A DNA stretch of 64,000 bases from Acidobacteriota bacterium (GCA_003225175.1 QIBA01000056.1:23790-87789); one strand, 5' to 3'. Counted from the first letter of the stretch, positions 32,073 to 64,000 are shown. A program made the numbers and translations. The notes: generated by a model not told the origin, from the sequence alone.

Positions 32073-34007
32073 ATGTCGTCCATATCACCAAGCGTAGAAA
32101 AGATGACCACGATGCCTAAATTTCACAACAATTTCAGTCTTGCAAAACTATCTATTTCGCTGATCTTGGTTCTGTTGGTGTCGGCTACCGCAGTAGGAGC
32201 ATTCGCGCAGGAGGATACGTCTAATAGCGCAACTACTCCGTTGGTCTACGACGTCGAGAATACCGGCGCGAACTTTGCGGCGCCTAGCTTCCCGAACTTC
32301 GCTCAACTTCCAATCATTCGGCCTTTGCCAGACCCGTTTCGGTTTGTCGACGGAACCCGCGACACTTCTTTGGCAAACTGGGAGCGTCGGCGTCAAGAGA
32401 TCAAGGCTTCCATCGAGAAATACGAAATCGGCCCTAAGCCTGACTGCTCCGACTGCACTATTAGCGCGACGTACACGCCGGCGACGGCGCCGGCTAAAGG
32501 TACTCTGACCGTGACTGTTACCAGGAACGGCAAGTCGATGACTTTGAGGTCGGGCGTTTACATTCCAACCGGAATGGGCAATGGCCCGTTCCCAGCGTTG
32601 ATCGCCATGACGTTCTTTGCCAGCAACTCTGGGTTTAACAGAGGCAGCCTGCCAGCCAGCGTCTTCTCCACGCGCCCAATCGCTAGCATCGATTTCGTCC
32701 ACAACAACGTAACCACATACGGCCGTCCGAGCGCCACCGACGGCTTCTACACGCTCTACCCTGAACTTTGCGCTGGATCATCTTGCGCCGGCGGCAGCAA
32801 CTCGGGTCAATACGCCGCCTGGTCGTGGGGAGTGAGCCGTCTCATCGACGGCATCATCCTTGCTTCTCAGTCGTCCACCAATCGGCTACCTGTCGACATC
32901 AAGCACCTGGCCGTCACCGGATGCTCCTATGCCGGCAAAATGGCACTCTTTGCCGGTGCACTCGATGAGCGGGTTGCGCTGACGATCGCTCAGGAAAACG
33001 GTGGCGGTGGCGCTCCAGCCTGGCGTGTCACGGATGAGATAGAGGCGGATCATGCCTCCGAAGACATCGCCCGTACGGACTACAATTGGTTCGCCAGCCC
33101 GATGAGGCAGTTCTCTGGCGTCAATCGTTACAAGATGCCGACAGATCATCACGAATTGATGGCCCTGGTGGCGCCTCGTGCGCTATTGGAAACCGGCAAC
33201 ACGGATTTCTATTGGCTATCCAATCGATCCAACTATGTCTCAGCACGCGCGACGCAACGGGTCTATAACGCATTCGGTATCGGAGACCGCTTTGGCTTCT
33301 ATATCGACGGCGCACATAACCACTGTGCAACACTCCCCGCCGAGGCCCCGGCAGTCGCGGCCTTTGTCGACAAATTCATGGTGGGCGATGCGGCGGCCAA
33401 TACAGATGTAGAGGTATTCCCGACAAATCCGCCGCTCACCTACGACTATACGAAGCTCGACTACGCCCGCTGGACCACATGGTGGGGAACCAATGATCCG
33501 AAATTCCCGAACGATTGGAACCCGGGAGACGGTACGGTCGTTTTGGGCATGACTCGTCCGATGACTGTCGATTCTGGTGCGACTGTTTTGGGAGGCTATG
33601 ACTTGTACATGCCCGACGGCCATCCAGCGACGACGGTTTCTCTGGCGGGCGCAAGCATGAATACCGACGTCTACTGTGCCGATGGCACTTCCTACACGCT
33701 CAATATTCACCTTCCTGATCAGTTCTACTCGATACCGGCGAACGACGATTCCTGGTTCCCATCACCCAACCAGAAGAGCCCATCGGTCTGGCAGGGCTCG
33801 GCGACGGCCGCCGTTTGCCCCGGTGGAGTTGCGAAGAACGCCTTCTTTAGTGCATTGGGTGAAGGCCCGGCGTTCACGTTTGGAGGGCCTGGCTTCCGAA
33901 CCACCGACACCACGGATCCTCTCAATGTCAGGTTCCACTGCGACGCCGGCAACAACGGCGCTGGCGGAAGCTGGAGCCCGACGACAATCGTTAACTACCC
34001 GCAATAG
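32073..34007 (+). CDS. CE15 glucuronoyl esterase-like secreted alpha/beta hydrolase with C-terminal extension
   Basis: Signal peptide. N-terminal LPDPFRFVDGTRDTSLANWERRRQEI, then VTGCSYAGKMALFAGALDERVALTIAQENGGGGAPAWRV matching the CE15 G-C-S-R-x-G-K nucleophile region. Confidence 0.6.
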   Translation: MSSISPSVEKMTTMPKFHNNFSLAKLSISLILVLLVSATAVGAFAQEDTSNSATTPLVYDVENTGANFAAPSFPNFAQLPIIRPLPDPFRFVDGTRDTSLANWERRRQEIKASIEKYEIGPKPDCSDCTISATYTPATAPAKGTLTVTVTRNGKSMTLRSGVYIPTGMGNGPFPALIAMTFFASNSGFNRGSLPASVFSTRPIASIDFVHNNVTTYGRPSATDGFYTLYPELCAGSSCAGGSNSGQYAAWSWGVSRLIDGIILASQSSTNRLPVDIKHLAVTGCSYAGKMALFAGALDERVALTIAQENGGGGAPAWRVTDEIEADHASEDIARTDYNWFASPMRQFSGVNRYKMPTDHHELMALVAPRALLETGNTDFYWLSNRSNYVSARATQRVYNAFGIGDRFGFYIDGAHNHCATLPAEAPAVAAFVDKFMVGDAAANTDVEVFPTNPPLTYDYTKLDYARWTTWWGTNDPKFPNDWNPGDGTVVLGMTRPMTVDSGATVLGGYDLYMPDGHPATTVSLAGASMNTDVYCADGTSYTLNIHLPDQFYSIPANDDSWFPSPNQKSPSVWQGSATAAVCPGGVAKNAFFSALGEGPAFTFGGPGFRTTDTTDPLNVRFHCDAGNNGAGGSWSPTTIVNYPQ

Positions 34008-40888: not shown

Positions 40889-43122
40889 CTACTTCACTTC
40901 CAGGGGGACCGAGGTCAGGTCAGCGGAGTTGGGACCAACCATGATCTTGAAGGTCCCTGGCTCAACTATGCGCTTCATCTCACGATTGTAGAAAGGCAGC
41001 TCTTCCGGCCCAATCTGGAACGTCACCGTGCGAGTCTCGCCTGCCTTGATTGAGACGCGCTCGAATCCTTTTAGCTCTTTGATCGGACGTGTAACCGAGC
41101 TAACTTCATCGCGGATATACAACTGCACGACCTCATCGCCGGCACGGCTGCCTGCATTTGTCACGTCAACCGATACCTTCGCCGTTCCGTTTACAGAAAT
41201 CGAGCTGGGCTCGACTCGCACATTGCTGTAATTGAACTTTGTGTAGCTGAGTCCATAGCCGAACGGAAAGAGTGGAGAGTTGTCCGTAAATAAATAAGGA
41301 CGGCGCGCCGATGGCTTCTGATAATAGTAGTCAGGCAGTTGACCAACGGAGCGCGGGACCGTAATGGGGAGCCTGCCGGCAGGATTGTAATCGCCGAATA
41401 GAATCTCGGCCATGGCAATACGCCTAGAGCGAGGAGGCGGGAGACCAGCTCGTCTTGTCGTCCGAAGAGATCCAGGTTGTCGCGATCGCCCAGATGGTTA
41501 TTCGACCATCCCTCCCGCGAGGTTTGTTCGTTCTCTCCGACAACCACAATTCCGATATCGGCTTCTGACAGCACTTCGACGGCGTCGCTGATACGTTTTT
41601 CATCCAGCTTAGGAACGGCCGGCACTACTTTGTCTTCTTCCCAAACCGGTTTGCTCTCCGTGATTCGGCACCCTTCCGCATACAGTACCTCGGCTCTGCC
41701 GCCTACTCTGTTCTTGATTCCTTCGAGGATGCTGACATCGTGACGCGGCGTTCCGCTGTAACCACCAAGGTGAGGCTCACCCGCGTTTGGGCCGATCACA
41801 GCGATGCGTTTGAACTTTGCCAGATCAAGCGGAAGAAGCTGGTTATCGTTCTTGAGCAGAGTGATGGCCTCGCGCGCCGCCTGCAGAGCGAGTTCCCGAG
41901 CCTGTGCAGGCGAAGCGGACAGCACCGCCATCTGCGAGTCTGCGTACGGTTTTTCGAACAAGCCCAATTCGAATTTTGCTCGCAGGACTCGTGCCACCGA
42001 TTCGTTGATGAGTGACTCAGGAATCTGGCCGCTGCGCACGAGGGATGGCAATGTCTTGTAGCAACGCAAAAACGGGAGTTCAATGTCGACTCCTGCAGTG
42101 ATCGCCAGTTTCGCAGCCTGCTCGCAGTTTGCGGCGACATGATGGACGGTTATCAACTGCTCAATGGCGAAATAATCAGAGACCACCAGATTCTTAAAAC
42201 CAAACTCGCCCCGCAAGACGTTGCGCAGCAGCCAGGTGTTGCTGTGATTGGGAATGCCGTCAAGCTCGTTGTAAGACGGCATGATCGCGCGTGCATTGCC
42301 CTTGGCAATTCCGGCTTCAAATGGAGGGAGAAAATATTCGCGCACCGTGCGCTCGGAATAATTCGCGGGAGCCACATTCGCTCCGGCCTCAGGCTGACTG
42401 TGCACCGCGAAATGCTTCAGTGTGGCAAAGACATGATTGGCATCTACCGTCGGACCGTCGCCCTGCAAACCCTTGACCGCAGCGACTCCCATTCGGCCGG
42501 CAAGATATGGGTCTTCGCCGTAGGTCTCCTCAGTGCGTCCCCAACGTGGATCCCGCGCCAGATCCACAACGGGCATCAGGCACTCATGGGCACCTCGAGA
42601 CCGCGCCTCCCGAGCAGTGGCATCAAAGATGCGGCGCACGAGTGCGTCATCCCAGCTGGCAGCGAGCCCAATCGCCTGGGGATACGAAGTCGCGTCGGCC
42701 GCCACAAGGCCGTGCAGGCACTCTTCATGAAACATCAGCGGAATTCCTAATCGCGTGCTCTCAACGGCGATCCGCTGCAGCCGATTCGTGAAGTCCGCCA
42801 TTTCACGCGGCCCGCGATTCTCGCTCGGTCGAGTAACTTGTCCTAAACCATTTCTTAGCAGCTGCCGGGCTTTGGCCTCGTTAAACTCGCCTTTCTCATC
42901 AACGAAGAATTCTTCAGGAAGAAGATCCTGCGAATGGTTTTGCCAGGTCGATTCGAGTTGCGCAACTTTCTCTTCCAGAGTCATGCGGCTTAGCAGGTCA
43001 GTGACGCGCGTCTCGATCGGCAAGGCCGAATTTTTGTAGGACGGCATTGTTTGCTGGGCACCGAGAGCAGACAAGAAAAGCACGCAGACAATTACTATCC
43101 AAAAGTCTCTCCGACGATTCAT
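40889..43122 (-). pseudogene. GH3 beta-glucosidase gene disrupted by an internal deletion/frameshift (ORFs 41191..43122 and 40889..41413 are in different frames)
   Basis: The upstream ORF carries the GH3 catalytic domains (KHFAVHSQPEAG, VVSDYFAIE). The downstream ORF starts at (A)IAEILFGDYNPAGRLPITVP, the Fn3-like C-terminus. About 38 residues expected between ...LLALG and ...AIAEILFGDY (compare the intact GH3 at 23471) are missing, and the frames differ. Confidence 0.6.
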
Positions 43123-51477: not shown

Positions 51478-53625
51478 CTAGGTCAAGCGAATCGGCAGCT
51501 TTCTAACGCGCTGTCCTGTCGCCGCGAAGATGGCGTTGGTCACCGCCGGAGCGATCGGAGGCACTCCTGGTTCTCCACAGCCCGTGGGTCGATTGTCGTT
51601 GGTTAGAACGAATACCTCGGTTTCAGGCGATTCGAATATGCGCGCGATAGGGTAATCGTCAAAATTTCCCTGCTCTACCGCCCCGTCCTTCACAGTGATC
51701 TCTCCATACAGAGCGGCAGCAAGACCGAAGACAATCCCCCCTTCCATTTGAGCTTTCACTCCATCAGGATTCACGGCACGTCCGCAGTCCACCACACAAG
51801 TAACGCGATGTACCTGGAGATTTCCGTTATTCACTGACACTTCCGCAAGTTGCGCGACGTAGGTATCGAATGAATAGTGCGCCGCAAATCCGCGAGCGCC
51901 GCCTTTGGGCGCCGGCTTGCCCCAGTCGCCACGTGTAGCTGCCTCCTGAATCACGGCGCGCATGCGATGCGGATCGAACTCCGGTTCCTTGCTGTTGGGA
52001 TTCACTTCCCGATCCGGGAGCAGCGCCAGTCGGAACTGCACCGGATCTTGTTTGGCGGCATGCGCGAGTTCGTCGACGAAGCTCTGCACTACGAATCCAT
52101 TGAAGGAGTTCGCTACGGAGCGCCACCAGGCGCGTGGAACGCTGGTTGCCGCGGCAGCGTACTCCAGCTGGATATTGGGAATCGCATAGGGCAGATCGAT
52201 CGCGCCTTCGATCTCCTGCCCCTCTGATTTGCCGCCCCAGAAATCGCGGATAGATGTAGAGACAATCCGGTGGTGCCAGGCGATGAGGCGATTGTTTTCA
52301 TCGAGCGCTCCAGCCATCTTGTGATAGTTCGCCGGACGATAGAAGTCGAAGCGCATATCGTCCTCGCGCGTCCAGACCACCTGCACAGCTTTGCCGATCG
52401 CCTTCGAAACTAGCGCCGCTTCAACAGCAAAATCGAGCTGATAACGCCGACCGAACCCACCGCCGCTCAACACTGTGTGCCCGACGATCGACTTGGATGA
52501 AAGCCCCGTCGCCTGGGCCACGGCGCCTGCAATCCACTCCGGAGACTGTGTTGGCGCCCAGACCTCGGCTCCATCGGAGCGCACGTGCACCGTACAATTC
52601 ATCGGCTCCATCGTTGCATGCGCGAGAAACGGCATCTCGTAGTCTGCCTCGACCTTCTTCGCGGACTTCGCGATCACATCCGTAGCGTTTCCTTCATTGC
52701 GCAGCACTTTTCCTGGATTATTCGCCAACGCGACCATGCGCTGGCGCAGCGCATCGCTTGTGTCTTCGGGTTTAGCGCCGTCCCAGTTCACGACCAATGC
52801 ATCTCGTCCTCTTATCGCTGCCCAGGTATTCTCTGCCACAACAGCGACTCCCGCCCGCGTATGGGCATTCGAGACTTCAGGAATCGAAATCACATCGATG
52901 ACGCCTGGAACGGCCTTTGCTTTGGCGGCATCGAAGTTCTTGAGCTTGCCTCCGTAATAGGGACAACGAGCAATGACCGCCCTCACCATCCCAGCCACGT
53001 GGACATCGAGTCCAAATTGAGCAGAACCATCGCACTTGGATGGAATCTCAACCCGAGGCACGGGCTTGCCGATGTAAATGAACTCTTTCGGATCCTTCAG
53101 CGGAACTGATTTCAAATCGGGAATCGGCAGCTTGGATGCAGCCTCAGCCAGCTGGCCGTAAGTTGCCTTCTGCGATCCGGAATACACAATGCCTTTCGCT
53201 GTACGGCAGCTTTCGCGCGAGACGTTCCAGTGTTGCGCGGCTGCGGAGATGAGCATCTGTCGGGCAGCCGCTCCCGCCTGGCGCATGGGAGTAAATTGAC
53301 CTATCGTGCTGCCGCTCCCGCCCGTACTCATGTCATAAGTGTCCGGATTTGTGTCGGCATGGATAACCCGCACGAGATTCCAGTCCACGTCGGCTTCGTC
53401 CGCGAGGATCATGGGCAGTGTGGTCATGATCCCCTGACCAATCTCGCACTTGGCAAGCATGAGCGTGACGCTGTTGTCTGGAGCGATCTTCAACCATGCG
53501 TTTAGCGGATTCGCCATAGGCTTGGCCTCTTTCTGGCACGCTACATCCAAGGGCAGCGAAAATCCAATGACCAGCGCAGCGCCACCGCGGATGAAGTCGC
53601 GACGAGTTACAACGTTGGCGCTCAT
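51478..53625 (-). CDS. Molybdopterin-binding large subunit of a xanthine-dehydrogenase-family hydroxylase (IorB/aldehyde oxidase type), Tat signal
   Basis: Start placed at [18 protein letters not shown] (twin-arginine), followed by aldehyde-oxidase/xanthine-dehydrogenase Mo-binding domains. ATGA overlap with the small subunit. Confidence 0.8.
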
Positions 53626-54125
53626 GCGAGTTCTCCTTTCGCAGCACGCGTCAGTTCGGCCCTTGTGATTTCGGCAGCACGATGAACCGCTCGGCGGATG
53701 CGAACGTAGGTTCCACATCGGCACAGATTGCCCGAGAGCGCCTCGTTGATATCGTCGTCAGTGGGCTGTGGCTTGCGCGCGAGCAGTTCGGCAGCCGCCA
53801 TGATGAATCCCGACTGGCAGTAGCCGCATTGCGGGACCTGCTCGGCGATCCAGGCCTGCTGTACTGCGGAAAGATGGTTACGATCCGGAGACAAGCCTTC
53901 GATCGTCGTAACACGTTTGCCTTGCACCGTCGAGAGCGGAGTAATGCACGAGCGCGTCGCGCGTCCGTTCAGGTGGACGGTGCACGCCGCACAAAGCCCG
54001 CGGCCACATCCAAACTTAGTGCCCGTAAGATTCAGGTTATCGCGAAGAACCCAGAGAAGAGGAGTCTGAGGATCGGCATCGACGTCTTGCGTCTTGCCAT
54101 TCACGTTGAGGGCGATAGGAGACAC
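53622..54125 (-). CDS. (2Fe-2S)-binding small subunit of the molybdenum hydroxylase (IorA type)
   Basis: Two [2Fe-2S] motifs, [11 protein letters not shown] and [10 protein letters not shown]...CRCGTY. Confidence 0.85.
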
Positions 54126-54308: not shown

Positions 54309-57300
54309 CTAGAACGTCAGCCGCATCCCAAGCTGGATCTGCCGCGGTGGTCCCGCCGTAGTCGGATGTCCGTAGTCACCACTGGAGATGTTGGTGTTAT
54401 TCACTAGCTCCGAGGTTTGCGAACTAAACCGGAAATTCGTGTGATTGAAAGCGTTTACGACGTCTGCGCGAAATTGCAGCTTCAGATCCTCTCTGCCGAG
54501 TCCAAATTCCTTGCGCAGAGAGAAATCCCATTTGTACAGACCCGGTCCGCGCACCAGACCAGCGCCGCTGTTGCCCAAGCGGCCGTCAGGAGCCGGAGCA
54601 AATGCAGCGCTATTAAACCATTGCGTCGCGTTGGGCCCGTCGATCTGAACTGGCCCACCAAGGTAATCAGCACGGCGCCGCGAGGACGAGGGCAGGGTCA
54701 AACCAGCAAATGTGCTATTGCCGGTCACGGTGAAGGGCCCGCCAGTCTGTAGCTGGGTCAAACCGCCAAGTTCCCAGCCTCCCAGCGTCTCTCCTAGAAA
54801 ACCGCTCTCACTGCGGAAGGACGGCAAGCGATAATTGAACGTAGTAACGAAAATGTGGCGGTGATCGAAGAGAGCCGGACCATAGTTCAAAAAGCGCATG
54901 GTGGCATCTTCGATATTGTCGCTGGCACCGCTGTTGCGAACGTCTTCATTGCCGCCCCCGCTGTCGGTGAGATTTTTCGACCAGGTGTAACTGCCAGTCA
55001 GCGTGAGGTCTCCTTTACGCTTCGTCGCATAGATCTGCAAAGCGTTGTAGTTGGAGATGGCATCGCTCAGGAACATGTTGATGGTGGAGTAGCCCTTATA
55101 TGCCCTGAGCGCATCCAGAGCCGTAGCCTTTTGTGTTGATGGCAGCGTCTGATTGGCTAGCATGGTTGCGATGCTTGGCATGTTGATGTCGGGTTTGCGC
55201 ATCAAGTGTCGCGCCTGATTGCCAACATATGCGACTTCAAGAAAAACATCAGACGGCAATTCACGCTGCACACTCAGGCTATAAGTCATGCTGTAGGCCT
55301 GCTTCAGATTTGGATCGATGGCCGAAATGCTCAATCCGCCTGCCTTTGGCGCCGCTCCACCGGCGGGATTGGAAAGACTTGCTGTATTGAAGACCGCACT
55401 GCTTGAGAATGGCGGATTGCCGACCTCATCGAAGATCATGTTGCCTTCGGGTGTGTCATAGAAAAGGCCGATACCGCCGCGAACTGAAGTCTTGTTGTCG
55501 TTGAAGGGTTGGAGAGCAAAACCAAAACGCGGCGCCCACGTGCTCTGACCTTGATAGAGCCCGCGCGTTGCGCCATCCGGAATTGCACTGGGTGCGCCAC
55601 CGCTGCCGGCTCGGATGAGGCCATTGAAGGGATTGCCGCCCTTCGTCGTATCGATGGTGCCGTCAAGCTTGAGTGTCACCGCCTTTGATGGATCGTAGAG
55701 CGCAGGATCGAAGTTCGTCAGGTTATTTGCCTGCGTGTACCATGGGACGAAGTACTGATAACGGACTCCCACCTCCAGGCTGAGATTGCGCAGCACCTTC
55801 CAGTTGTCAGTCACGTAAGCGTGATATTGCGTAAAACGGAAGTGCCCGACGGGATCGTCGGAGGCTTCTTCATATTTATTGAAGTTACCCATCAAAGCAT
55901 CGGCGAGCGAATTGCCGGATGAATTGGAGCCGGTCCCGGTAAAGGTGATCGCCCCTGCATACAGCGAACGCGCGTTCTGATCTTTGCGATTCCGAATGAC
56001 CAGCACTCCGGTCTTCAGCGTGTGTGCCCCGTGGCTCCAAGTGAGGTTGTCCCCCGGCGCTATGTCGGTTGTCGGAGAGAGCAACGCGTGTGACTGGCCC
56101 TTGAGAGTCTGAAAGGTGGACATCATGATGTCGGGAATGCTGTTGCGAAAGCGTCCCCCACCGTTGGGGAACAACTGCGGAAATACGAAACCGTAGGTGC
56201 TGCGCTTCCACGAGTCACCTACCGGATTCAGGCGTTGCCCATTCCAGGAAGCATTGATCTTGGCTTCGTTCACCAGCGTCGGCGTGATCGTCCAGGTGTG
56301 CGCTACTTGGTAGCTCGTGCCCGGACGCCTGCGGTCTTCAGGGCAGCTTGGTACGTCGGTAGCGCAGGAAAACCCGCTGGGCAGCAGGATGCTGAACTCG
56401 TCATGAATGTAGCGCAGATAAATGTTGTGCTTCTGCGTCAGCGAGAGATCGACGCGCGCGAAGTCCTCTCGGGAGTCGAACGGTTGAGCGTTCTGATAGA
56501 TTGTGTTGCTCCCCGTGCCGGTGTTAGTGAACGAGGCTGCCTGCTGTTCCATCGCGCCATAAAGCTTTGCGATTGCTGCTCCATCTGCGGTGATGCATTG
56601 CGGGCTGAGTACGTTATTCGTAATTGTGCAGCCGGCGGGAGCACTTGCGGGCTTGGTCAGCTTTAAGGTGTTGTACTTCCAATCGCGGAAGTCGCCAGAG
56701 AGCTCGGCCGTCGTAGGCATCGTCACCTTGACCGGAGCCGTCGAGGAGCGCAAGTACTTCCACTGCTCGCCGACGTAGAAGAAGAGCTTGTCGCGCTTAA
56801 TGGGACCACCTAACTGCCAGGTGGGGTTGTTGAAGCGCAGCGGCGGCTTGATCGCCGCTCCGCTGACTTGATCCCGGGAGAAGTAGTTCACTGCATCCAG
56901 ATAATCGTTGCGAAAATATTCGGAAATACCGCCGTGAAGACGGTTGCTTCCACTCTTTGTCACTACGTTAACGGCGGCGCCGGCGGAGCGTCCGTACTCG
57001 GCGGAAAAATTGGAGGTTTTTACGCTTACCTCCTGGACGAAATCGAGGCCAACGTTGTTGATCAAACTGCCATTGGAACCTGAATCCAGATTGAAGCCGC
57101 CGTCCACGGTATGCAGGTTTTGATCGCTGCGGATGCCGTTGACCGAAAATGGGCTCGCTGTAAGACCAGTAGTAACCGCCATCTCGTCCTCATCCGTGAC
57201 CGCGGCACCCGGCATCAGCGTGACCAATTGCCCGTAGTTGCGGCCATTGAGCGGCAGGGTTTCCACCTGCTGCGCGTCCACAACCCGCGAGATCTCACCC

Positions 57301-57725
57301 GAAGTTGTGTTCACGGTCTCGCCTGTTCCCGTCACTTCAACGGTTTCGGTGACGGCGCCCGGCTTCAGGGTGAAGTCCACGGTCACGCGTGCATCGGGAT
57401 CGATGTGATAGCCAGTCCTTATTTCTCTGCCGAAGCTCTTTTGCTCTGCGGCCAGACTGTAATTTCCAACCGGGAGGTCGGTTACTACATAAAAGCCTCT
57501 GGCATCCGTTGTAACGGTGCGCGTGAGCCCAGTTCCCAAATTGACCACGGCGACTGTTACTCCGGGAATGGCCGCACCGGAAGTATCCACTACCGTTCCG
57601 GAGAAGCGGCCGGTGATGGTCATTTGCGCGGCCACGGAGCGTACTACCGCCATCCACGCAGCACCTGCCAACACACACGCAAGAACGCCACGCAGCGTTC
57701 TGGATTTCAAATCGATCGCTGACAT
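54309..57725 (-). CDS. TonB-dependent outer-membrane receptor (CarboxypepD_reg type), third copy
   Basis: 1138 aa. GTVVDTSGAAIPGVTVAVVNLGTGLTRTVTTDARGFY. Ends ...MRLTF. Confidence 0.9.
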   Translation of the reverse strand: MSAIDLKSRTLRGVLACVLAGAAWMAVVRSVAAQMTITGRFSGTVVDTSGAAIPGVTVAVVNLGTGLTRTVTTDARGFYVVTDLPVGNYSLAAEQKSFGREIRTGYHIDPDARVTVDFTLKPGAVTETVEVTGTGETVNTTSGEISRVVDAQQVETLPLNGRNYGQLVTLMPGAAVTDEDEMAVTTGLTASPFSVNGIRSDQNLHTVDGGFNLDSGSNGSLINNVGLDFVQEVSVKTSNFSAEYGRSAGAAVNVVTKSGSNRLHGGISEYFRNDYLDAVNYFSRDQVSGAAIKPPLRFNNPTWQLGGPIKRDKLFFYVGEQWKYLRSSTAPVKVTMPTTAELSGDFRDWKYNTLKLTKPASAPAGCTITNNVLSPQCITADGAAIAKLYGAMEQQAASFTNTGTGSNTIYQNAQPFDSREDFARVDLSLTQKHNIYLRYIHDEFSILLPSGFSCATDVPSCPEDRRRPGTSYQVAHTWTITPTLVNEAKINASWNGQRLNPVGDSWKRSTYGFVFPQLFPNGGGRFRNSIPDIMMSTFQTLKGQSHALLSPTTDIAPGDNLTWSHGAHTLKTGVLVIRNRKDQNARSLYAGAITFTGTGSNSSGNSLADALMGNFNKYEEASDDPVGHFRFTQYHAYVTDNWKVLRNLSLEVGVRYQYFVPWYTQANNLTNFDPALYDPSKAVTLKLDGTIDTTKGGNPFNGLIRAGSGGAPSAIPDGATRGLYQGQSTWAPRFGFALQPFNDNKTSVRGGIGLFYDTPEGNMIFDEVGNPPFSSSAVFNTASLSNPAGGAAPKAGGLSISAIDPNLKQAYSMTYSLSVQRELPSDVFLEVAYVGNQARHLMRKPDINMPSIATMLANQTLPSTQKATALDALRAYKGYSTINMFLSDAISNYNALQIYATKRKGDLTLTGSYTWSKNLTDSGGGNEDVRNSGASDNIEDATMRFLNYGPALFDHRHIFVTTFNYRLPSFRSESGFLGETLGGWELGGLTQLQTGGPFTVTGNSTFAGLTLPSSSRRRADYLGGPVQIDGPNATQWFNSAAFAPAPDGRLGNSGAGLVRGPGLYKWDFSLRKEFGLGREDLKLQFRADVVNAFNHTNFRFSSQTSELVNNTNISSGDYGHPTTAGPPRQIQLGMRLTF

Positions 57726-57961
57726 TTCACCCTCTCGTTTTGTAAAGAGCAGAGACGCGGGTTCAGCTTGGTGATTGCAGCAACGCTCGCTGCGCTAGTT
57801 CATGTCTGATCGCAGCTAAGCCGCAGAAGACTCCAGCGTCGTGCTATACCGCATTACGGTACAATGTATCGTATTCCGCAAATCGGCGGCGAGCATACTG
57901 GTCGAAGTGGGTGCCTCTTGTCAAGACTGAAGTATGGGTTCACTGCGGCCGGGAACTTGGG

Positions 57962-58207
57962 TCAGTGTTTTATTGGTCCCGATGTACCTTGTCCGGAGAA
58001 AATGCCGGCAGGCAGACTGGCTGCGTTCGGAGTTGAATACTGAATCCACTCTCTGCGATGCGCGATTACTGCCTGTCCCGCTTGAACATCGAGGGTTCCG
58101 TCCTGTTGCTGCACGCGCACTGTTCCTTTGAGCACGATCGTAAATTCATCAAACTGGGGACGCTGCCCCGGTTCTTCCCATCCTACCGGACTGCGCATAT
58201 GCGCCAC
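57962..58207 (-). CDS. Cupin-fold fragment (possibly the C-terminal half of a frameshifted cupin gene together with ORF 58183..58494)
   Basis: FDEFTIVLKGTVRVQQQDGTLDVQAGQAVIAHRREWIQYS resembles cupin motif 2. No intact motif 1. Confidence 0.3.
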   Translation of the reverse strand: MAHMRSPVGWEEPGQRPQFDEFTIVLKGTVRVQQQDGTLDVQAGQAVIAHRREWIQYSTPNAASLPAGIFSGQGTSGPIKH

Positions 58208-58689
58208 ACTGGCAGCCCGTCTTGCTGTTCACGAGGCCAATATATTCGTCGATCAACTTTGGTTTCGTTCCTGCCGCCTGAATGGGCATAAGTTGAGAGA
58301 TGAGGGTCGGCAAATTTTGTTTTCCTCAACGACGACTCCAATTTCGTTAGAGCAACCGAGAACAACCGACAAATCTTGCAATGGCTCTCGTTTTCGGAGT
58401 ACCAAATAGAGTTCGACTTTGGAGGCGACAAGCACAAGGATGCAGTGGGCTCCGACTCCGCAACAAATCCCGCGACGCAGGAACTATTGTGCAACTCAGA
58501 CGCGACCCGTTTCAGTCGAAGCCGGTGACTGAAGAGTCAAAACCGCAAGCTTCCGGTTTGGCGAACCGCAAGATCTTGCGTTTTAGAACGGAGAAGTATG
58601 GCCGAAAATCTTATAACGTGTTAATCGAATGTACTTACGAAACGGCGTTCGGGGAGGGCGGAGGGGTACGGTCCCGGTAAGCGCATCGC

Positions 58690-58703
58690 TGCATAATACT
58701 GCA
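58690..58703. promoter_or_regulatory. TGCATAATACTGCA (TGCA-N6-TGCA), candidate BoxR/BzdR-type operator upstream of boxC
   Basis: Read directly, 72 bp upstream of the boxC start. A -10 TATAAT at 58737-58742 and SD AGGAG at 58763-58767 follow. Confidence 0.5.
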
Positions 58704-58774
58704 CACGCATTTTCAATTCTTGCGCTTGACATGCTTTATAATGCATCTCTATTTTAGAAGTCTAGGAGTTCTCA

Positions 58775-60511
58775 ATGGATACCGCGCTCGCCGTTGATCC
58801 AGACAAGCAGACACAATTCGTCGATTTTCAGACGCATGCTTCCCGCTACCAGCATTGGCAGCTTAAGTTCGCCGGACCGATTGCCAGCTTAATAATGGAC
58901 ACGAAAGAGGAAGGGGGCATCCGTCCTGGATACAAGCTTAAACTGAACTCCTACGATCTAGGCGTTGACATCGAGTTGCACGATGCTTTGCAGCGCATCC
59001 GCTTCGAACATCCTGAGGTTCGCGCTGTGGTCCTCACCAGCGCCAAGCAACGCGTCTTCTGCTCTGGCGCAAACATTTATATGCTCGGCAGTTCATCTCA
59101 CGCGTCGAAAGTGAACTTCTGCAAATTCACCAATGAGACGCGCAACGGGATTGAAGATGCCAGCCGCAACTCCAGCATCAAGTTCTTGGCGGCATGCAAC
59201 GGAACCACCGCAGGCGGAGGCTACGAGCTGGCCCTTGCCTGCGACGAGATCATTCTGATCGATGATCGTTCTTCAGCCGTGAGCCTGCCTGAGGTTCCGC
59301 TGCTGGGCGTCCTTCCCGGAACGGGAGGGCTGACGCGTGTAACCGATAAGCGCAAAGTCCGCCGCGATCTTGCAGACATTTTTTGTACGGTGCCGGAAGG
59401 CATTCAAGGCCAGCGAGCAAAAGACTGGCGGCTGGTTGATGAGGTCGTGAAACCGGCGCAGTGGAATGACCATATCCAGAAGCGCGCCCAGGAACTGGCC
59501 GCGCACAGCGACCGTCCGCAAAACGAGAGCGGAGTGGAACTCACGCCGCTCAAGCGCAGCGTCGACGACCACGGCTATCACTATGAGCACGTCGATGTGA
59601 CTTTCGATCCTGAGGGACGCAGCGCGACGATTGCGGTTCGTGCTCCGCAATCGGTTACCGCGAAATCCCTTTCTGAAATCAAGCAAGCAGGCGCGAGCTG
59701 GTGGCCGCTGCAGATGGCCCGTGAGCTCGACGATGCCATTCTGAGCCTGCGCACTAATGAACTTGGACTTGGTCTGTGGATTTTAAAAACCAGCGGCAAT
59801 GCGGACGCGGTGCTCGAGATCGATCGTCAACTGATTAAACATCGCGGTAACTGGTTCGTCCGGGAGGTGATCAGTATGCTGCGTCGCACTCTCGCGCGGC
59901 TCGATGTCGCTTCCCGATCGATGTATGCCGTCATTGAAGAGGGCTCCTGCTTTGCCGGAACGTTGTTCGAGCTGGCTTTAGCCGCCGATCGCAGCTACAT
60001 GCTGAACAATTCCGATAATCCTGAAGGCACGTTCATCGCGCTGTCGGAGATTAATTTCGACTTATGCCGGGATGTAGAGACGCAGTCCGCCGCGGCGGAC
60101 GTCTCCCGATGCTGCCTGTTGGAATCAGTCAGTGGAGTACCGCGACTGATCTCGCGGTTCTATGGTGACCAGAAGAAGATCGAAGCTCTGCGTGCTCTGA
60201 TCGGCAAGAAGGTTTCTGCGGAGGAAGCCGCTGAAGCAGGTTTAATAACCGCCGCTCCCGACGATCTGGATTGGCCCGCCGAGCTTCGCCTGGCGATCGA
60301 ATCTCGCGTGGCGCTCTCACCCGATGCACTCACCGGTCTCGAAGCCAATCTTCGCTTCGCTCAGCCCGAATCGATGCTCACGCGAATCTTCGGTCGCCTC
60401 TCGGCATGGCAGAACTGGATTTTTATCCGTCCGAACGCAGTTGGACAGACCGGAGCGTTGAAGGTGTACGGAAGTGGGAACAAAGCAAAGTTCAACTGGG
60501 AGCGGGTGTAA
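58775..60511 (+). CDS. boxC: Benzoyl-CoA-dihydrodiol lyase (crotonase-superfamily ring-cleaving enzyme)
   Basis: 578 aa. Crotonase fold with VVLTSAKQRVFCSGANIYMLG and ACNGTTAGGGYELALACD. Full-length similarity to BoxC. Confidence 0.8.
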   Translation: MDTALAVDPDKQTQFVDFQTHASRYQHWQLKFAGPIASLIMDTKEEGGIRPGYKLKLNSYDLGVDIELHDALQRIRFEHPEVRAVVLTSAKQRVFCSGANIYMLGSSSHASKVNFCKFTNETRNGIEDASRNSSIKFLAACNGTTAGGGYELALACDEIILIDDRSSAVSLPEVPLLGVLPGTGGLTRVTDKRKVRRDLADIFCTVPEGIQGQRAKDWRLVDEVVKPAQWNDHIQKRAQELAAHSDRPQNESGVELTPLKRSVDDHGYHYEHVDVTFDPEGRSATIAVRAPQSVTAKSLSEIKQAGASWWPLQMARELDDAILSLRTNELGLGLWILKTSGNADAVLEIDRQLIKHRGNWFVREVISMLRRTLARLDVASRSMYAVIEEGSCFAGTLFELALAADRSYMLNNSDNPEGTFIALSEINFDLCRDVETQSAAADVSRCCLLESVSGVPRLISRFYGDQKKIEALRALIGKKVSAEEAAEAGLITAAPDDLDWPAELRLAIESRVALSPDALTGLEANLRFAQPESMLTRIFGRLSAWQNWIFIRPNAVGQTGALKVYGSGNKAKFNWERV

Positions 60512-60547
60512 CGTGGATCCGGGCGGATCCATGTCGGAGATGTCGCA

Positions 60548-61972
60548 ATGAACATCGATTACGCACAACTGATCCCCAACAACGTCAACCTCGCCAGCGA
60601 CCGCACGTTGCAGCGCGCGCTGGAGCGCTGGCAGCCGGCATTCCTTGGCTGGTGGAACGACACTGGCCCGGCCAGCACTTCGGATCTTCAGGTCTATTTG
60701 CGCACCGCCATCAGCGTGGAAAAAGACGGTTGGGCTAACTTCGGCTACGTACGCATGCCCGAGTATCGCTGGGGCATATTTCTGGTTCCCCGCGATGACA
60801 ATCGCAAGATCCATTTTGGCGATCATCAAGGCGAGGCCGCATGGCAAGACGTTCCCGGCGAATATCGCTCGACATTGCGCCGCATCATTGTTACGCAAGG
60901 TGACACCGAACCGGCATCGGTAGAGCAACAGCGCCTGCTCGGAAAAACTGCACCTTCGCTCTACGACATGCGCAATCTTTTCCAAGTGAATGTCGAAGAG
61001 GGACGACATCTATGGGCGATGGTCTACCTTCTCCATCGCTATTTCGGGAAAGATGGGCGCGAAGAAGCCGAGTACTTGCTCGAGCGCCGCTCGGGCGATA
61101 CGAATAATCCGCGTATTCTCACGGCCTTTAACGAGCAGACCCGTCACTGGCTCGCATTCTTCATGTTTGCTTTCTTCACCGATCGCGACGGTAAGTTCCA
61201 ACTGTCGTCGCTCGCGGAGTCAGCATTCGATCCGCTCTCGCGCACCTGCCGCTTCATGCTGACCGAAGAGGCGCACCACATGTTTGTCGGCGAGTCGGGA
61301 GTCGCTCGCACGGTGCAACGCACCTGTGAGTTAATGAAGCAACATGGCCTCAGTGATCCCAACGAGGGACGCCAGTTCGGAGTAATCGATCTGTACACGC
61401 TGCAGAAGTTTGTGAACTTCCACTACAGCGTGACGCTCGATCTGTTCGGCTCGGACATTTCTTCAAACGCCGCTACCTATTACACCACCGGCTTGAAAGG
61501 CCGCTATGAGGAAGGCAAGCGCAGCGACGACCACCGGCTTGCTTCCGATGACTACAAGGTGCTCGACATGGAGAAGGGCCAAATCATCGAGAAGCGGGTT
61601 CCCGCGCTGACCGCGCTCAACGCTCGTTTGCGTGACGACTATATAGATGAGATTCAGGGCGGGCTCAATCGGTGGAACCGCATTCCCGAACAGTTGGGAA
61701 TCCCATTTCGGTTCAAGCTGCCGCACATGGGCTTTCACCGTAAGATTGGGAACTTCGCTGGACAATTTATCAGTCCAGACGGTCAGGTAATCCCCGAAGC
61801 TGACTGGAATCGACAGCGCGACAACTGGATGCCCTCGGAGAGCGACCATCAATACATCCAATCGCTTATGGGGCAGGTGGTCGAACCGGGCAAGTTCGCC
61901 AACTGGATCGCCCCACCCGCTCGCGGAATCAACGGCAAACCAATTGACTTCGAGTATGTGAGGTTTAACTAG
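60548..61972 (+). CDS. boxB: Benzoyl-CoA 2,3-epoxidase oxygenase component (di-iron)
   Basis: 474 aa. N-terminus MNIDYAQLIPNNVNLASDRTLQRALERW characteristic of BoxB. EExxH di-iron motifs (LTEEAHHMF). Confidence 0.85.
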   Translation: MNIDYAQLIPNNVNLASDRTLQRALERWQPAFLGWWNDTGPASTSDLQVYLRTAISVEKDGWANFGYVRMPEYRWGIFLVPRDDNRKIHFGDHQGEAAWQDVPGEYRSTLRRIIVTQGDTEPASVEQQRLLGKTAPSLYDMRNLFQVNVEEGRHLWAMVYLLHRYFGKDGREEAEYLLERRSGDTNNPRILTAFNEQTRHWLAFFMFAFFTDRDGKFQLSSLAESAFDPLSRTCRFMLTEEAHHMFVGESGVARTVQRTCELMKQHGLSDPNEGRQFGVIDLYTLQKFVNFHYSVTLDLFGSDISSNAATYYTTGLKGRYEEGKRSDDHRLASDDYKVLDMEKGQIIEKRVPALTALNARLRDDYIDEIQGGLNRWNRIPEQLGIPFRFKLPHMGFHRKIGNFAGQFISPDGQVIPEADWNRQRDNWMPSESDHQYIQSLMGQVVEPGKFANWIAPPARGINGKPIDFEYVRFN

Positions 61973-62028
61973 CGAGTCGCTACTGGCTTCTCGCTGCTAG
62001 CAGCCCTCGCCGGCGTACGAGATGCAAG

Positions 62029-62550
62029 TTGCTGTACAACGCGCGAGTCACAACAGATTTTCACAGTTCGTCGGGCGAGAGCGCTCGGTACTCCGGACTA
62101 CAGATCTTGATAACGATGACACAGAACAGTCTCAATACTGACCACGTACTGTCAGCCACGACGACGTCAGAGTGCTCCATTCATTTGGACGATCTGCGCA
62201 ACTTCGCGGCACGGCTTCGTTCCATTTCAGAACGTGCTCGCAAGCTTCTCGTGCACATCGCAGAGATGGCATACCACGGACGCGGGCAGGATCGGAGGAC
62301 CGATGTTGCTTACCTTCCTGAGCTGTACGAATCCACAGGCCTGGATGTTGAATCCATGTATGCGCTGTTGAAAGAGCTGCAGGCTGCACAATTTGTTGTT
62401 GTCGAGGATCAATATCCGTTTGAGGACGTCAAAATACTGTCGTGTGGATCAGGATGGAATGCTTTAGCCGCGATCTCAAGTCTTGCTGAAGCGAAAAGAA
62501 TTCCCTTACGCGACGTTATTGCCGACGTCCATTTTGAGCTGTTGCAATGA
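62029..62550 (+). CDS. Hypothetical protein, translationally coupled to boxR (ATGA overlap)
   Basis: 173-aa ORF with no recognizable motif. True start may be the internal M at 62116. Confidence 0.4.
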   Translation: MLYNARVTTDFHSSSGESARYSGLQILITMTQNSLNTDHVLSATTTSECSIHLDDLRNFAARLRSISERARKLLVHIAEMAYHGRGQDRRTDVAYLPELYESTGLDVESMYALLKELQAAQFVVVEDQYPFEDVKILSCGSGWNALAAISSLAEAKRIPLRDVIADVHFELLQ

Positions 62551-63491
62551 GTAGAGTGTCCCACTACGGAACGGAGCTGGTGCAACCAACCGGTCGACCG
62601 GAGACTAAACCGCCAGAGCAGAGCGACTCCGAATACTTGCGTTTATTGGGCGAGAATGTTCGCGCAGCCCGTGCGCGCCGCGGGATGACGCGAAAGATGC
62701 TGGCCACCGACTCCAGCGTCTCGGAGCGATTTCTCGCGCAACTCGAGAGCGGAACCGGGAACGCTTCGGTGCTGATCCTACGGCAGATTTCGCAGGCGCT
62801 CAATCTGTCGCTTGAGGCTATGCTGCCCGGCGCACACGAACATTCTGTCGAAATGGAACGCGCTCTGAGTCTTCTGCAGCGACTGGAGCCGCTTGAGTTG
62901 CGCGAGGCACAAGAGCTTCTATTCCAGCGATTCGGCAAAAAGAGGAGTGAGAATGATCGCCGTCATCGCATCGCGCTCATTGGTCTTCGCGGCGCCGGAA
63001 AATCTACTATCGGCAAGCTCCTTAGCAGGAAATTGGAGCTGCCTTTCTTCGAGCTCGATGGGCTGATTGAACAGACCAGCGGCATCTCCCTAAGCATGAT
63101 CTTCGACCTCTACGGACAGAGCGGATTTCGACGATTCGAACGACGCTGCCTGGACAACCTGCTGAGCACGCAGCAGAGATTTATCGTCGCAACCGGCGGC
63201 AGTCTGGTGTCGGAACCCTCTACATATGACCTGCTGCTCACGAGCTGCTACACGATCTGGCTTCGGGCTACGCCGCAGGACCACATGTCCCGTGTGATTG
63301 CGCAAGGCGACATACGGCCCATGGCGCAGAGTGCCGAAGCAATGTCGGATTTAGAACGCATTCTCGCGGAGCGCGACGAGCTGTACAGAAGAGCCGATGC
63401 GTCGATCGATACCAATGGAAAGTCCGTAGAGGAAGTGATTCAGGAATGCTTCCACAATCTTGAATCCATGTTGGACGTTGCGCGCAAATAG
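62547..63491 (+). CDS. boxR: BoxR/BzdR-type regulator: N-terminal XRE HTH + C-terminal shikimate-kinase-like domain
   Basis: HTH LGENVRAARARRGMTRKMLATDSSVSERFLAQLESG. P-loop IGLRGAGKSTIG and shikimate-kinase-like fold. Confidence 0.8.
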   Translation: MSRVSHYGTELVQPTGRPETKPPEQSDSEYLRLLGENVRAARARRGMTRKMLATDSSVSERFLAQLESGTGNASVLILRQISQALNLSLEAMLPGAHEHSVEMERALSLLQRLEPLELREAQELLFQRFGKKRSENDRRHRIALIGLRGAGKSTIGKLLSRKLELPFFELDGLIEQTSGISLSMIFDLYGQSGFRRFERRCLDNLLSTQQRFIVATGGSLVSEPSTYDLLLTSCYTIWLRATPQDHMSRVIAQGDIRPMAQSAEAMSDLERILAERDELYRRADASIDTNGKSVEEVIQECFHNLESMLDVARK

Positions 63492-63547
63492 CACAAACTC
63501 GAATCCGGGCGGGGGAGCACCCGAATCGACGTGGTCTTGCGTCAGGA

Positions 63548-64000
63548 CTAATGTGTGATCGAGATTCGAATTCGCGAGGCTCCAATGTACTTGTCGGCGC
63601 CGCCATAGTAGATCCACCACTCGTCTTTGCTTTTGTCTTTCACCATGCCTTCCGTGAATACCACATTAGGAACCTGACCTACGCGCTGCCAGTCGGTTTG
63701 CGGGCGCAGGAACGGCGTTTCTGCTCGCGCGATCAGCTTGCTCGGATCAGTCTTGTCGAACAGAGCCCACGCCGTGGTGTACACCAGCTTATCGTCAGCA
63801 GCGTTGTAGATAAGTAGGATTCCAGCATCGGTGACGATCGGCGGCGGACCAGGTTCCATAACTCTCGAATCGAATGCACCGGCTCGGCGAGGCAGCACCG
63901 GCTGCGCTGTCGCATCGCTCCAATGAAGCAGATCCCCGGAGAATGCCAATCCCATGTAGTCGCGCTTGTCGGACGCAGTTCCAAGATAGTACATCCACCA
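63548..64000 (-). CDS. GH130/GH43-like beta-propeller glycosidase/phosphorylase, C-terminal part (gene continues past the window end)
   Basis: ...WWIYYGGADKYIGAS at the C-terminus resembles the GH130 YYGAAD motif. ORF is open to the window edge. Confidence 0.45.
   Translation of the reverse strand, partial: WWMYYLGTASDKRDYMGLAFSGDLLHWSDATAQPVLPRRAGAFDSRVMEPGPPPIVTDAGILLIYNAADDKLVYTTAWALFDKTDPSKLIARAETPFLRPQTDWQRVGQVPNVVFTEGMVKDKSKDEWWIYYGGADKYIGASRIRISITH

Follow-up and report, generated by a model that had tools for sequence, protein, structure and literature searches.

A box operon of Terriglobales (Acidobacteriota) that joins boxC and boxB to a winged-helix gene and boxR, probably without a dedicated BoxA

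We analyzed a 64,000-nucleotide (nt) stretch of an Acidobacteriota genome (GCA_003225175.1, QIBA01000056.1:23790-87789; the window), in which positions 58775-63491 hold four co-directional open reading frames (ORFs) on the plus strand: boxC, boxB, a small gene and boxR. Their products belong to the aerobic benzoyl-coenzyme A (CoA) or box pathway. This pathway was elucidated in Betaproteobacteria and is regarded as a unit of four enzymes: ligase, BoxAB, BoxC and BoxD. The system is a known one; its configuration, with no boxA, a gene of a new winged-helix family and boxR in last place, is new and lineage-wide.

The first gene, boxC (58775-60511, +), encodes a full-length protein that scored 894 bits against TIGR03222 (cut-off 712), with the match spanning residues 16-578 and an ECH_1 domain present. 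After 36 nt it is followed by boxB (60548-61972, +), which encodes the 474-amino-acid (aa) oxygenase component of the diiron benzoyl-CoA 2,3-epoxidase. This protein matched TIGR03225 at 858 bits (cut-off 499) over residues 3-473, and aligned end to end (residues 3-474, 795 bits) with the solved BoxB of Aromatoleum/Azoarcus evansii (PDB 3PER). The motifs GDTE, NVEEGRH, TDRDG and LTEEAHH were identical in the two aligned sequences. We take these to be the positions of the A. evansii diiron ligands E120, E150, H153, D211, E240 and H243, a numbering that is said to come from Rather et al. in 2011. The window BoxB is predicted to epoxidise benzoyl-CoA.

The third gene (62116-62550, +) encodes an acidic 144-aa protein of an uncharacterised family, with no match in Pfam or NCBIfam. 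Translation from a TTG at 62029 would lengthen the protein to 173 aa; gene callers and the lengths of homologues favored the ATG at 62116. Its stop codon overlaps the start of boxR (ATGA). The boxR gene (62547-63491, +) encodes a 314-aa BzdR/BoxR-type regulator, which scored 384 bits against NF006015 (cut-off 204) and combines an HTH_3 domain (residues 38-90) with a shikimate-kinase-like SKI domain (residues 148-305) whose P-loop sequence, GLRGAGKST, is present. It is 51% identical to the Mycetohabitans regulator encoded beside boxC. An earlier sequence-only reading of the window had named BoxC, BoxB and a BzdR/BoxR-type regulator with an XRE helix-turn-helix and a shikimate-kinase-like domain, and these family matches, all above their cut-offs, bear out the three assignments.

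Upstream of boxC lies a TGCA-N6-TGCA palindrome, TGCATAATACTGCA (58690-58703, not assigned to a strand), 72-85 nt before the start codon. A consensus scan placed a promoter-like TTGACA-18 nt-TATTTT (10/12 matches) at 58726-58755 (+), and a third TGCA, at 58742-58745, falls inside its spacer; we regard this element as a candidate promoter overlapped by the operator region. The palindrome occurs at the same place in the related loci L092 (TGCACAATACTGCA) and L094 (TGCAGCATAATGCA), whose promoters have otherwise diverged, and L096 keeps it with one mismatch. The spacer TGCA is likewise conserved in orthologous promoters, and the block CTTGACATG...TGCATCTCTA is kept in L092 and L096. The sites bound by BzdR and BoxR are TGCA repeats with a spacing of 6 nt, or of 1 or 15 nt, and the betaproteobacterial operator consensus is ATGCACTATAGTGCAT (PMC6449761, PMC6678401). 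The BzdR/BoxR proteins of Azoarcus sp. CIB have the same XRE-type helix-turn-helix and shikimate-kinase-like domains, and there too the TGCA repeats lie 6 nt apart near and inside the promoter. The window BoxR differs from these repressors in being ~51% identical to a betaproteobacterial BoxR and in having its gene translationally coupled to the upstream winged-helix gene. As a benzoyl-CoA-responsive repressor, it would bind the candidate operator and the spacer TGCA and keep the operon, its own gene included, repressed until benzoyl-CoA builds up, so that expression would be autoregulated and benzoyl-CoA-inducible. Neither an Rfam scan of 57000-64000, which matched no RNA family, nor a terminator scan, which gave nothing above shuffled expectation, added further elements.

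The partners that the pathway requires are not found nearby. We searched with reference proteins from annotated or hidden Markov model-verified loci: BoxA, benzoate-CoA ligase, DUF4863 and the alpha/beta hydrolase of the Mycetohabitans plasmid (NZ_CP132745.1), and BoxD of Cupriavidus. None had a match in the 64-kb window (tblastn, E<1e-5). The same locus was found in ten near-identical soil-metagenome contigs. The next 8.5 kb downstream of the window holds a GH130 gene, a TPR protein, a TonB-dependent receptor and hypothetical genes, with no box genes, and the 8.6 kb that precede the window are likewise free of box genes. The operon thus stands alone, with no boxA, ligase or boxD within ~80 kb. 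The sequence-only reading had reported that boxA and the ligase were absent from the vicinity and allowed that they might lie immediately outside the window; the absence extends over the window and both flanks, with ~8.5 kb clean on each side.

To place the locus among other box clusters, we scanned genomes at one per species, which yielded 80 BoxB loci, and mapped the reference proteins onto them. boxA was counted only in those acidobacterial loci with at least 1.5 kb of sequence after boxB (n=13). It was within reach in none of these 13 species loci and in 58/58 of the other loci, a linkage contrast with a Fisher p of 1.7e-14, in which shared ancestry is not corrected for. Other box genes were frequent companions in the acidobacterial loci: the ligase was adjacent in 10/15, boxR in 11/15 and boxD in 5/15. 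In three loci (L021, L025, L026), boxA was missing though ligase, boxD, boxR, boxC and boxB were all clustered. We conclude that pathway genes do cluster in Acidobacteriota, and that boxA was never among them in the loci surveyed. The winged-helix module itself was examined in 49 metagenome loci; boxA was found within 10 kb in 0/49, the ligase was present in 0/49 and boxD in 1/49. The same module is also present in diverged Terriglobales contigs. Source names ('Acidobacteria bacterium', 'Terriglobales') and the closest genome loci support an acidobacterial origin of the window. Literature on boxA-less box clusters, or on box genes in Acidobacteria, yielded nothing specific; one paper describes some Burkholderiaceae chromosomes that carry incomplete box clusters without BoxA.

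The order boxC-boxB-boxA was seen in 58/58 proteobacterial loci, usually with boxR just upstream and ligase or boxD divergent, and boxCBA is the published canonical arrangement (PMC6449761). The sequence-only reading had called the gene order of the window unusual. This does not apply to boxC-boxB, which is the canonical order; it does apply to the missing boxA and to the small gene and boxR after boxB. In the canonical betaproteobacterial cluster (A. evansii, Paraburkholderia, Cupriavidus, Mycetohabitans), boxR and boxC-boxB-boxA are accompanied by divergent (DUF4863)-bclA/boxD. The window resembles it in its equivalog-level BoxC and BoxB, the latter 66-70% identical, and in boxC-boxB order, regulator type and the type of TGCA-N6-TGCA site. 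It differs in that no boxA follows boxB and in that ligase, boxD, DUF4863 and lactonase-type hydrolase are all missing from the vicinity. Furthermore, boxR closes the operon, where the canonical cluster has it first and transcribed separately; an additional winged-helix gene stands between boxB and boxR, and the divergent neighbor is a small cupin. Two variants stood apart in the survey. In four Burkholderiales loci from metagenome-assembled genomes (MAGs; L019, L029, L030, L035), the order is boxB-boxA-boxB2, where the product of the boxB2 paralogue shares 57-59% identity with the window BoxB and branches off deeply and separately in the BoxB tree. In a Reyranella MAG with an alphaproteobacterial label (L065, 10001-18289), boxC-boxB is followed by 6.9 kb without boxA; its BoxB branches off deepest in the main clade, and the locus is possibly another boxA-less lineage or a binning error.

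All acidobacterial BoxB sequences formed a single clade in our neighbor-joining tree, which carries no support values. The clade has two branches: one of Terriglobia, including the window, and one of Vicinamibacterales, 'Acidiferrales' and Solibacter. Loci of the second branch (L014-L016, L021, L023-L028, L038) likewise have boxC-boxB without boxA. They differ from the window in that boxR usually lies upstream of boxC, the ligase and boxD are usually adjacent, and there is no winged-helix gene. In seven of them (L014, L015, L021, L025, L026, L028, L038), boxB is directly followed by the genes of a three-subunit 4-hydroxybenzoyl-CoA-reductase-like molybdenum enzyme, and in 6/7 (all except L014; see, for example, L025, 11458-16336) an Amidohydro_2 gene precedes these. 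The best match of this enzyme is by far 4-hydroxybenzoyl-CoA reductase, with 787 bits for the alpha subunit (cut-off 994), 263 for beta and 175 for gamma. This arrangement suggests that 4-hydroxybenzoate may be funnelled into the aerobic box pathway in this second branch.

The operon brings together the two enzymes that act jointly on benzoyl-CoA and the pathway's own regulator. BoxB, the diiron epoxidase, would form the epoxide, and BoxC would open its ring, with formate and 3,4-dehydroadipyl-CoA semialdehyde as products. BoxC purifies together with BoxB, whose product inhibition it relieves (PMC4498308), and boxC-boxB is for this reason an indivisible core. A comparable dependence is found in the phenylacetyl-CoA epoxidase PaaABCE, a diiron acyl-CoA ring epoxidase of the BoxB superfamily (the window BoxB has a weak PaaA_PaaC match and a match to 4MUD), which, like BoxB, needs the next pathway enzyme to relieve product inhibition; in contrast to the monomeric, benzoyl-CoA-specific BoxB, it has a dedicated PaaE reductase and structural subunits (PMC4498308). 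No paa genes were found in the window. Absence of BoxA may be tolerable in such an arrangement, because BoxA would act catalytically through transient contact whereas BoxC must stay with BoxB. The two electrons that the acidobacterial BoxB needs would then come from a reductase encoded elsewhere, probably a general one of the NAD(P)H-ferredoxin or flavodoxin type, and benzoyl-CoA formation and semialdehyde oxidation would be left to unlinked enzymes.

An alternative electron donor for BoxB is plausible, and it gains support from two observations: boxA is unlinked phylum-wide, and there is a BoxA-free actinomycete genome with boxB and boxC. This is the complete 11.85-Mb chromosome of Nonomuraea gerenzanensis, which encodes BoxB (59% identity) and BoxC (54% identity) with a paaX-like gene between them. 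In that chromosome, BoxA had no match at E<=1e-12, in a search whose matches elsewhere were listed down to generic CysJ-like domains. The locus (L098; NZ_LT559118.1, 5639774-5661174) reads boxB, paaX-like on the opposite strand and boxC, flanked by ABC and MFS transporter genes; its record, though a chromosome, belongs to the plasmid collection. It is like the window in having boxB and boxC without BoxA, and here the absence covers a complete chromosome; it is unlike the window in gene order, in its PaaX-type rather than BoxR regulator, and in a BoxB that is only 59% identical.

An exhaustive search of 1.84 billion representative proteins returned ~10 full-length BoxA-like clusters (clustered at 50% identity), two of which are canonical proteobacterial BoxA. 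Five divergent clusters (P0245, P0247, P0269, P0405, P0408) adjoin cytochrome P450, Rieske or acyl-CoA dehydrogenase genes and none lies beside boxB; the sixth (P0257) comes from a contig of 5 kb, with LysR and enoyl-CoA hydratase neighbors. The source names of the clusters give no taxonomy. No acidobacterial box locus was among the seven BoxA-like cluster contexts, and the best 120 word-index BoxA matches were all from Burkholderiaceae. We also tried, and rejected, a conserved alternative reductase in the neighborhood: the genes after boxB in L016, L023, L024 and L065 encode a transposase, tannase, malate-synthase-like protein, TPR protein or unknowns.

BoxA-like reductases were encountered in other settings. 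In four metagenome contigs (L100-L103), proteins of BoxA architecture (2x[4Fe-4S] plus an FNR-like domain; 41-49% identity) are encoded next to cytochrome P450 and small Fer4_15 ferredoxin genes, or next to Rieske oxygenase genes, which indicates that BoxA-like reductases serve other oxygenases. Full-length BoxA or BoxA-like genes (59% and 46% identity) also occur in the plasmid records H46-H48, of Rhizobium leguminosarum (NZ_CP030763.1), Cupriavidus necator N-1 (NC_015727.1) and Cupriavidus sp. KK10, on replicons that gave no BoxB match in the same collection search; therefore, 'orphan' BoxA-like reductases also exist.

Together, these observations lead us to consider it probable that Terriglobales inherited this four-gene operon, boxC-boxB-winged helix-boxR, vertically, that it is functional, and that it works without a dedicated BoxA; for acidobacterial BoxB as a whole, the lack of a dedicated BoxA is likewise the likelier case. 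Several points weigh against this interpretation. The absence of boxA, ligase and boxD holds for ~80 kb, so unlinked copies elsewhere in the genome are possible, and because ligase and boxD are not linked to the operon in this subclade either, genes of the pathway can clearly be scattered. A BoxA from Acidobacteriota with more than 50% identity to the proteobacterial protein would be hidden within the two canonical clusters. All-against-all ORF clustering of 17 acidobacterial loci found no FNR-type or ferredoxin gene beside the box clusters, and recovered only ligase, boxD, boxR, amidohydrolase and the 4-hydroxybenzoyl-CoA-reductase-like molybdenum enzyme. The BoxB tree that underlies the single acidobacterial clade is the neighbor-joining tree without support values. 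The TGCA-N6-TGCA motif occurs twice in 64 kb, about the chance expectation, and the site upstream of boxC is a candidate operator because of its position and conservation, not because of motif count. Finally, we know of no biochemical evidence for BoxB accepting electrons from anything except BoxA.

The strongest competitor is an ordinary, dispersed box pathway, in which boxA, ligase and boxD lie elsewhere in the genome, BoxA reduces BoxB as usual, and only linkage differs. Dispersal is real in the Terriglobales subclade, where the ligase and boxD are unlinked and yet needed for the pathway; BoxA is required only in small amounts (PMC4498308), so its co-transcription is not essential; and our search for boxA covered ~80 kb around the operon rather than the whole genome. 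Simple dispersal would have to account, however, for the lack of boxA within 10 kb in every one of the 13 acidobacterial species loci and 49 metagenome loci, and for its absence even from the three fully clustered loci. Nor was there a separate, boxB-associated BoxA-like lineage among the representative clusters, and Nonomuraea gerenzanensis demonstrates that a complete genome can hold boxB and boxC and no BoxA. We therefore regard a dispersed pathway as a real possibility, though not the one that we favor.

The small gene occupies the position of boxA. More than 207 homologues of ~140 aa were found, all unnamed and without a Pfam domain, which share the invariant motifs AYHGRGQ, YLPELxE(S/A)xGLDV and YPFE(D/E). 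No PDB sequence matched the window protein, as none had in Pfam or NCBIfam, and searches with 36 family members gave only faint, inconsistent winged-helix matches (E>0.007). The modelled fold is a generic winged helix. Identity to MarR/ArsR-type and other winged-helix domains is 3-19%, with no Pfam match above threshold; the small protein differs from the MarR/ArsR type in being acidic, in its family-specific invariant motifs, and in a net negative 'recognition' helix and wing (net charge -1 and -3, respectively, in the window protein; the median isoelectric point of the family is 5.3). Such an acidic helix and wing would be atypical for a DNA-binding repressor, which is suggestive. In the 49 metagenome loci, boxB was upstream of the gene in 34/35 and boxR downstream in 41/42 instances, and the gene is often translationally coupled to boxB (L092, L096). 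In L011-L013, whose boxR lies at a distance of 4 kb or was not found, boxB is immediately followed by shorter homologues of 93-107 aa. In the other acidobacterial branch the gene was not found, and the ORFs that follow boxB in L023 and L024 show no relationship to the family.

BoxA (TIGR03224) carries two [4Fe-4S] ferredoxin motifs and an FAD/NADPH-binding FNR-like domain. The small protein shares none of this. We rejected it as BoxA itself on size (144 aa against ~410 aa), on the lack of conserved cysteines and on the lack of similarity, and as a hidden reductase, ferredoxin or DUF4863 on the same lack of similarity and conserved cysteines and on its winged-helix fold. No conserved cysteine or other cofactor-binding motif was found in the family; without cofactor-binding residues, the winged-helix protein is not an electron carrier and not the missing reductase. 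More likely, it is a protein-binding accessory of BoxB/BoxC or of BoxR than a classical DNA-binding repressor.

A related proposal is that the small protein replaces BoxA functionally, either by carrying electrons or, like the small effectors of other diiron monooxygenases, by coupling BoxB to a general reductase. Its place after boxB, held even where boxR is elsewhere or not nearby (L011-L013), its frequent translational coupling to boxB, and a non-basic 'recognition' helix that argues against plain DNA binding are all in keeping with this idea. The family's lack of cofactor motifs excludes electron carriage by the protein itself, though, and a generic winged-helix fold would fit a regulator as well. 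Moreover, the gene is missing from the other acidobacterial subclade, which is also boxA-less, so that it is not a general solution. We consider replacement of BoxA by this protein quite unlikely. A broader proposition is that Acidobacteriota and some Actinomycetota run BoxB without any BoxA, through a non-dedicated or unrecognised donor, and that the Terriglobales winged-helix protein is a coupling or adaptor protein of BoxB/BoxC or a partner that modulates BoxR; this, too, we hold to be unlikely, and put it forward tentatively.

As for the origin of the operon, the sequence-only reading had raised horizontal acquisition. BoxB is 66-70% identical to the Burkholderiales enzymes and the box pathway is best known from Betaproteobacteria, which would be compatible with recent transfer of a partial cluster from Proteobacteria, and such a transfer would explain the missing genes. 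The evidence speaks against it: G+C content is flat across the operon (0.55-0.57) and the same as in the whole window, and acidobacterial BoxB forms its own clade, with the window deep within the Terriglobales subclade. In addition, the module and its GH130-TPR-TonB neighbors are syntenic across Terriglobales contigs whose winged-helix proteins are 55-67% identical to that of the window, and no mobile-element genes flank the operon. Recent transfer is thus very improbable.

The ratio of nonsynonymous to synonymous substitution rates (dN/dS) against L094 was 0.05 for boxC, 0.03 for boxB, 0.06 for the small gene and 0.15 for boxR; the range against L094 and L092 was 0.03-0.15, with dS near saturation, so these ratios are rough. 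All four genes are under strong purifying selection. That the operon is a decaying remnant, which has lost boxA, ligase and boxD and whose remaining genes are as non-functional as the adjacent frameshifted cupin, would fit the local absence of essential partner genes, but it is hardly credible given four intact, full-length ORFs, a BoxB with its metal-ligand motifs kept, dN/dS values that contradict it, and a module retained in dozens of diverged contigs.

The operon is flanked downstream by the convergent GH130 gene, and upstream by a 1-kb gap and then a divergent TonB-dependent receptor gene. Within the gap lies the pseudogene of a small EutQ-like cupin (57973-58322, -), divergent from boxC and interrupted by two frameshifts. 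Intact cupin orthologues of 118-165 aa (from L092, L094 and L096) matched the window in three successive frames by tblastn, and an 81-aa ORF at 57962-58207 (-), with a weak Cupin_2 match, is the middle piece. The frameshifts are real, because independent metagenome assemblies (L001-L010) carry the same breaks; over 13.4 kb, L001 and the window are separated by 3 substitutions and no indel, and two further assemblies are identical at the cupin stretch. The degraded cupin remnant seen in the sequence-only reading is therefore confirmed. In diverged relatives, an intact cupin gene lies divergent from boxC, and the gene is intact in L092, L094, L096, L121, L130, L132 and L146.

Elsewhere in the window, positions 14017-44939 hold genes for hemicellulose utilisation: a bicupin, TPR proteins, CarboxypepD_reg-type TonB receptors, a GH10 xylanase, two GH3 genes, a CE15 glucuronoyl esterase (32073-34007), a GDSL esterase, LacI and ROK regulators and an FGGY kinase. 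These surroundings, with hemicellulose and lignin-carbohydrate esterase functions, are circumstantial, but they fit a soil saprotroph that uses plant-derived aromatic acids. One GH3 glycosidase (40889-43122, -) is seemingly split into two overlapping ORFs, of 643 aa (GH3 N and part of the C domain) and then 174 aa (the end of GH3_C and an Fn3-like domain), and may be a frameshift or a pseudogene, like the cupin. A two-subunit IorAB-like molybdopterin oxidoreductase (51478-54125, -; a 2Fe-2S subunit of 167 aa and a large subunit of 715-748 aa) lies between a 339-aa gene and a TonB receptor gene. The pair is missing from the otherwise syntenic L094, and is thus an insertion or deletion difference between close lineages; with no link to BoxB either, we rejected it as a box partner.

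Metagenome surveys score the box pathway by the joint presence of boxA and boxB. If the phylum indeed keeps BoxB and BoxC while boxA is never linked and possibly missing, such surveys would under-count aerobic benzoyl-CoA degraders in soil, where Acidobacteriota are a very abundant phylum, and the electron supply of BoxB would be more flexible than the textbook scheme. The locus also provides a handle on an uncharacterised family of more than 200 members, encoded almost always between boxB and boxR, whose function is directly testable.

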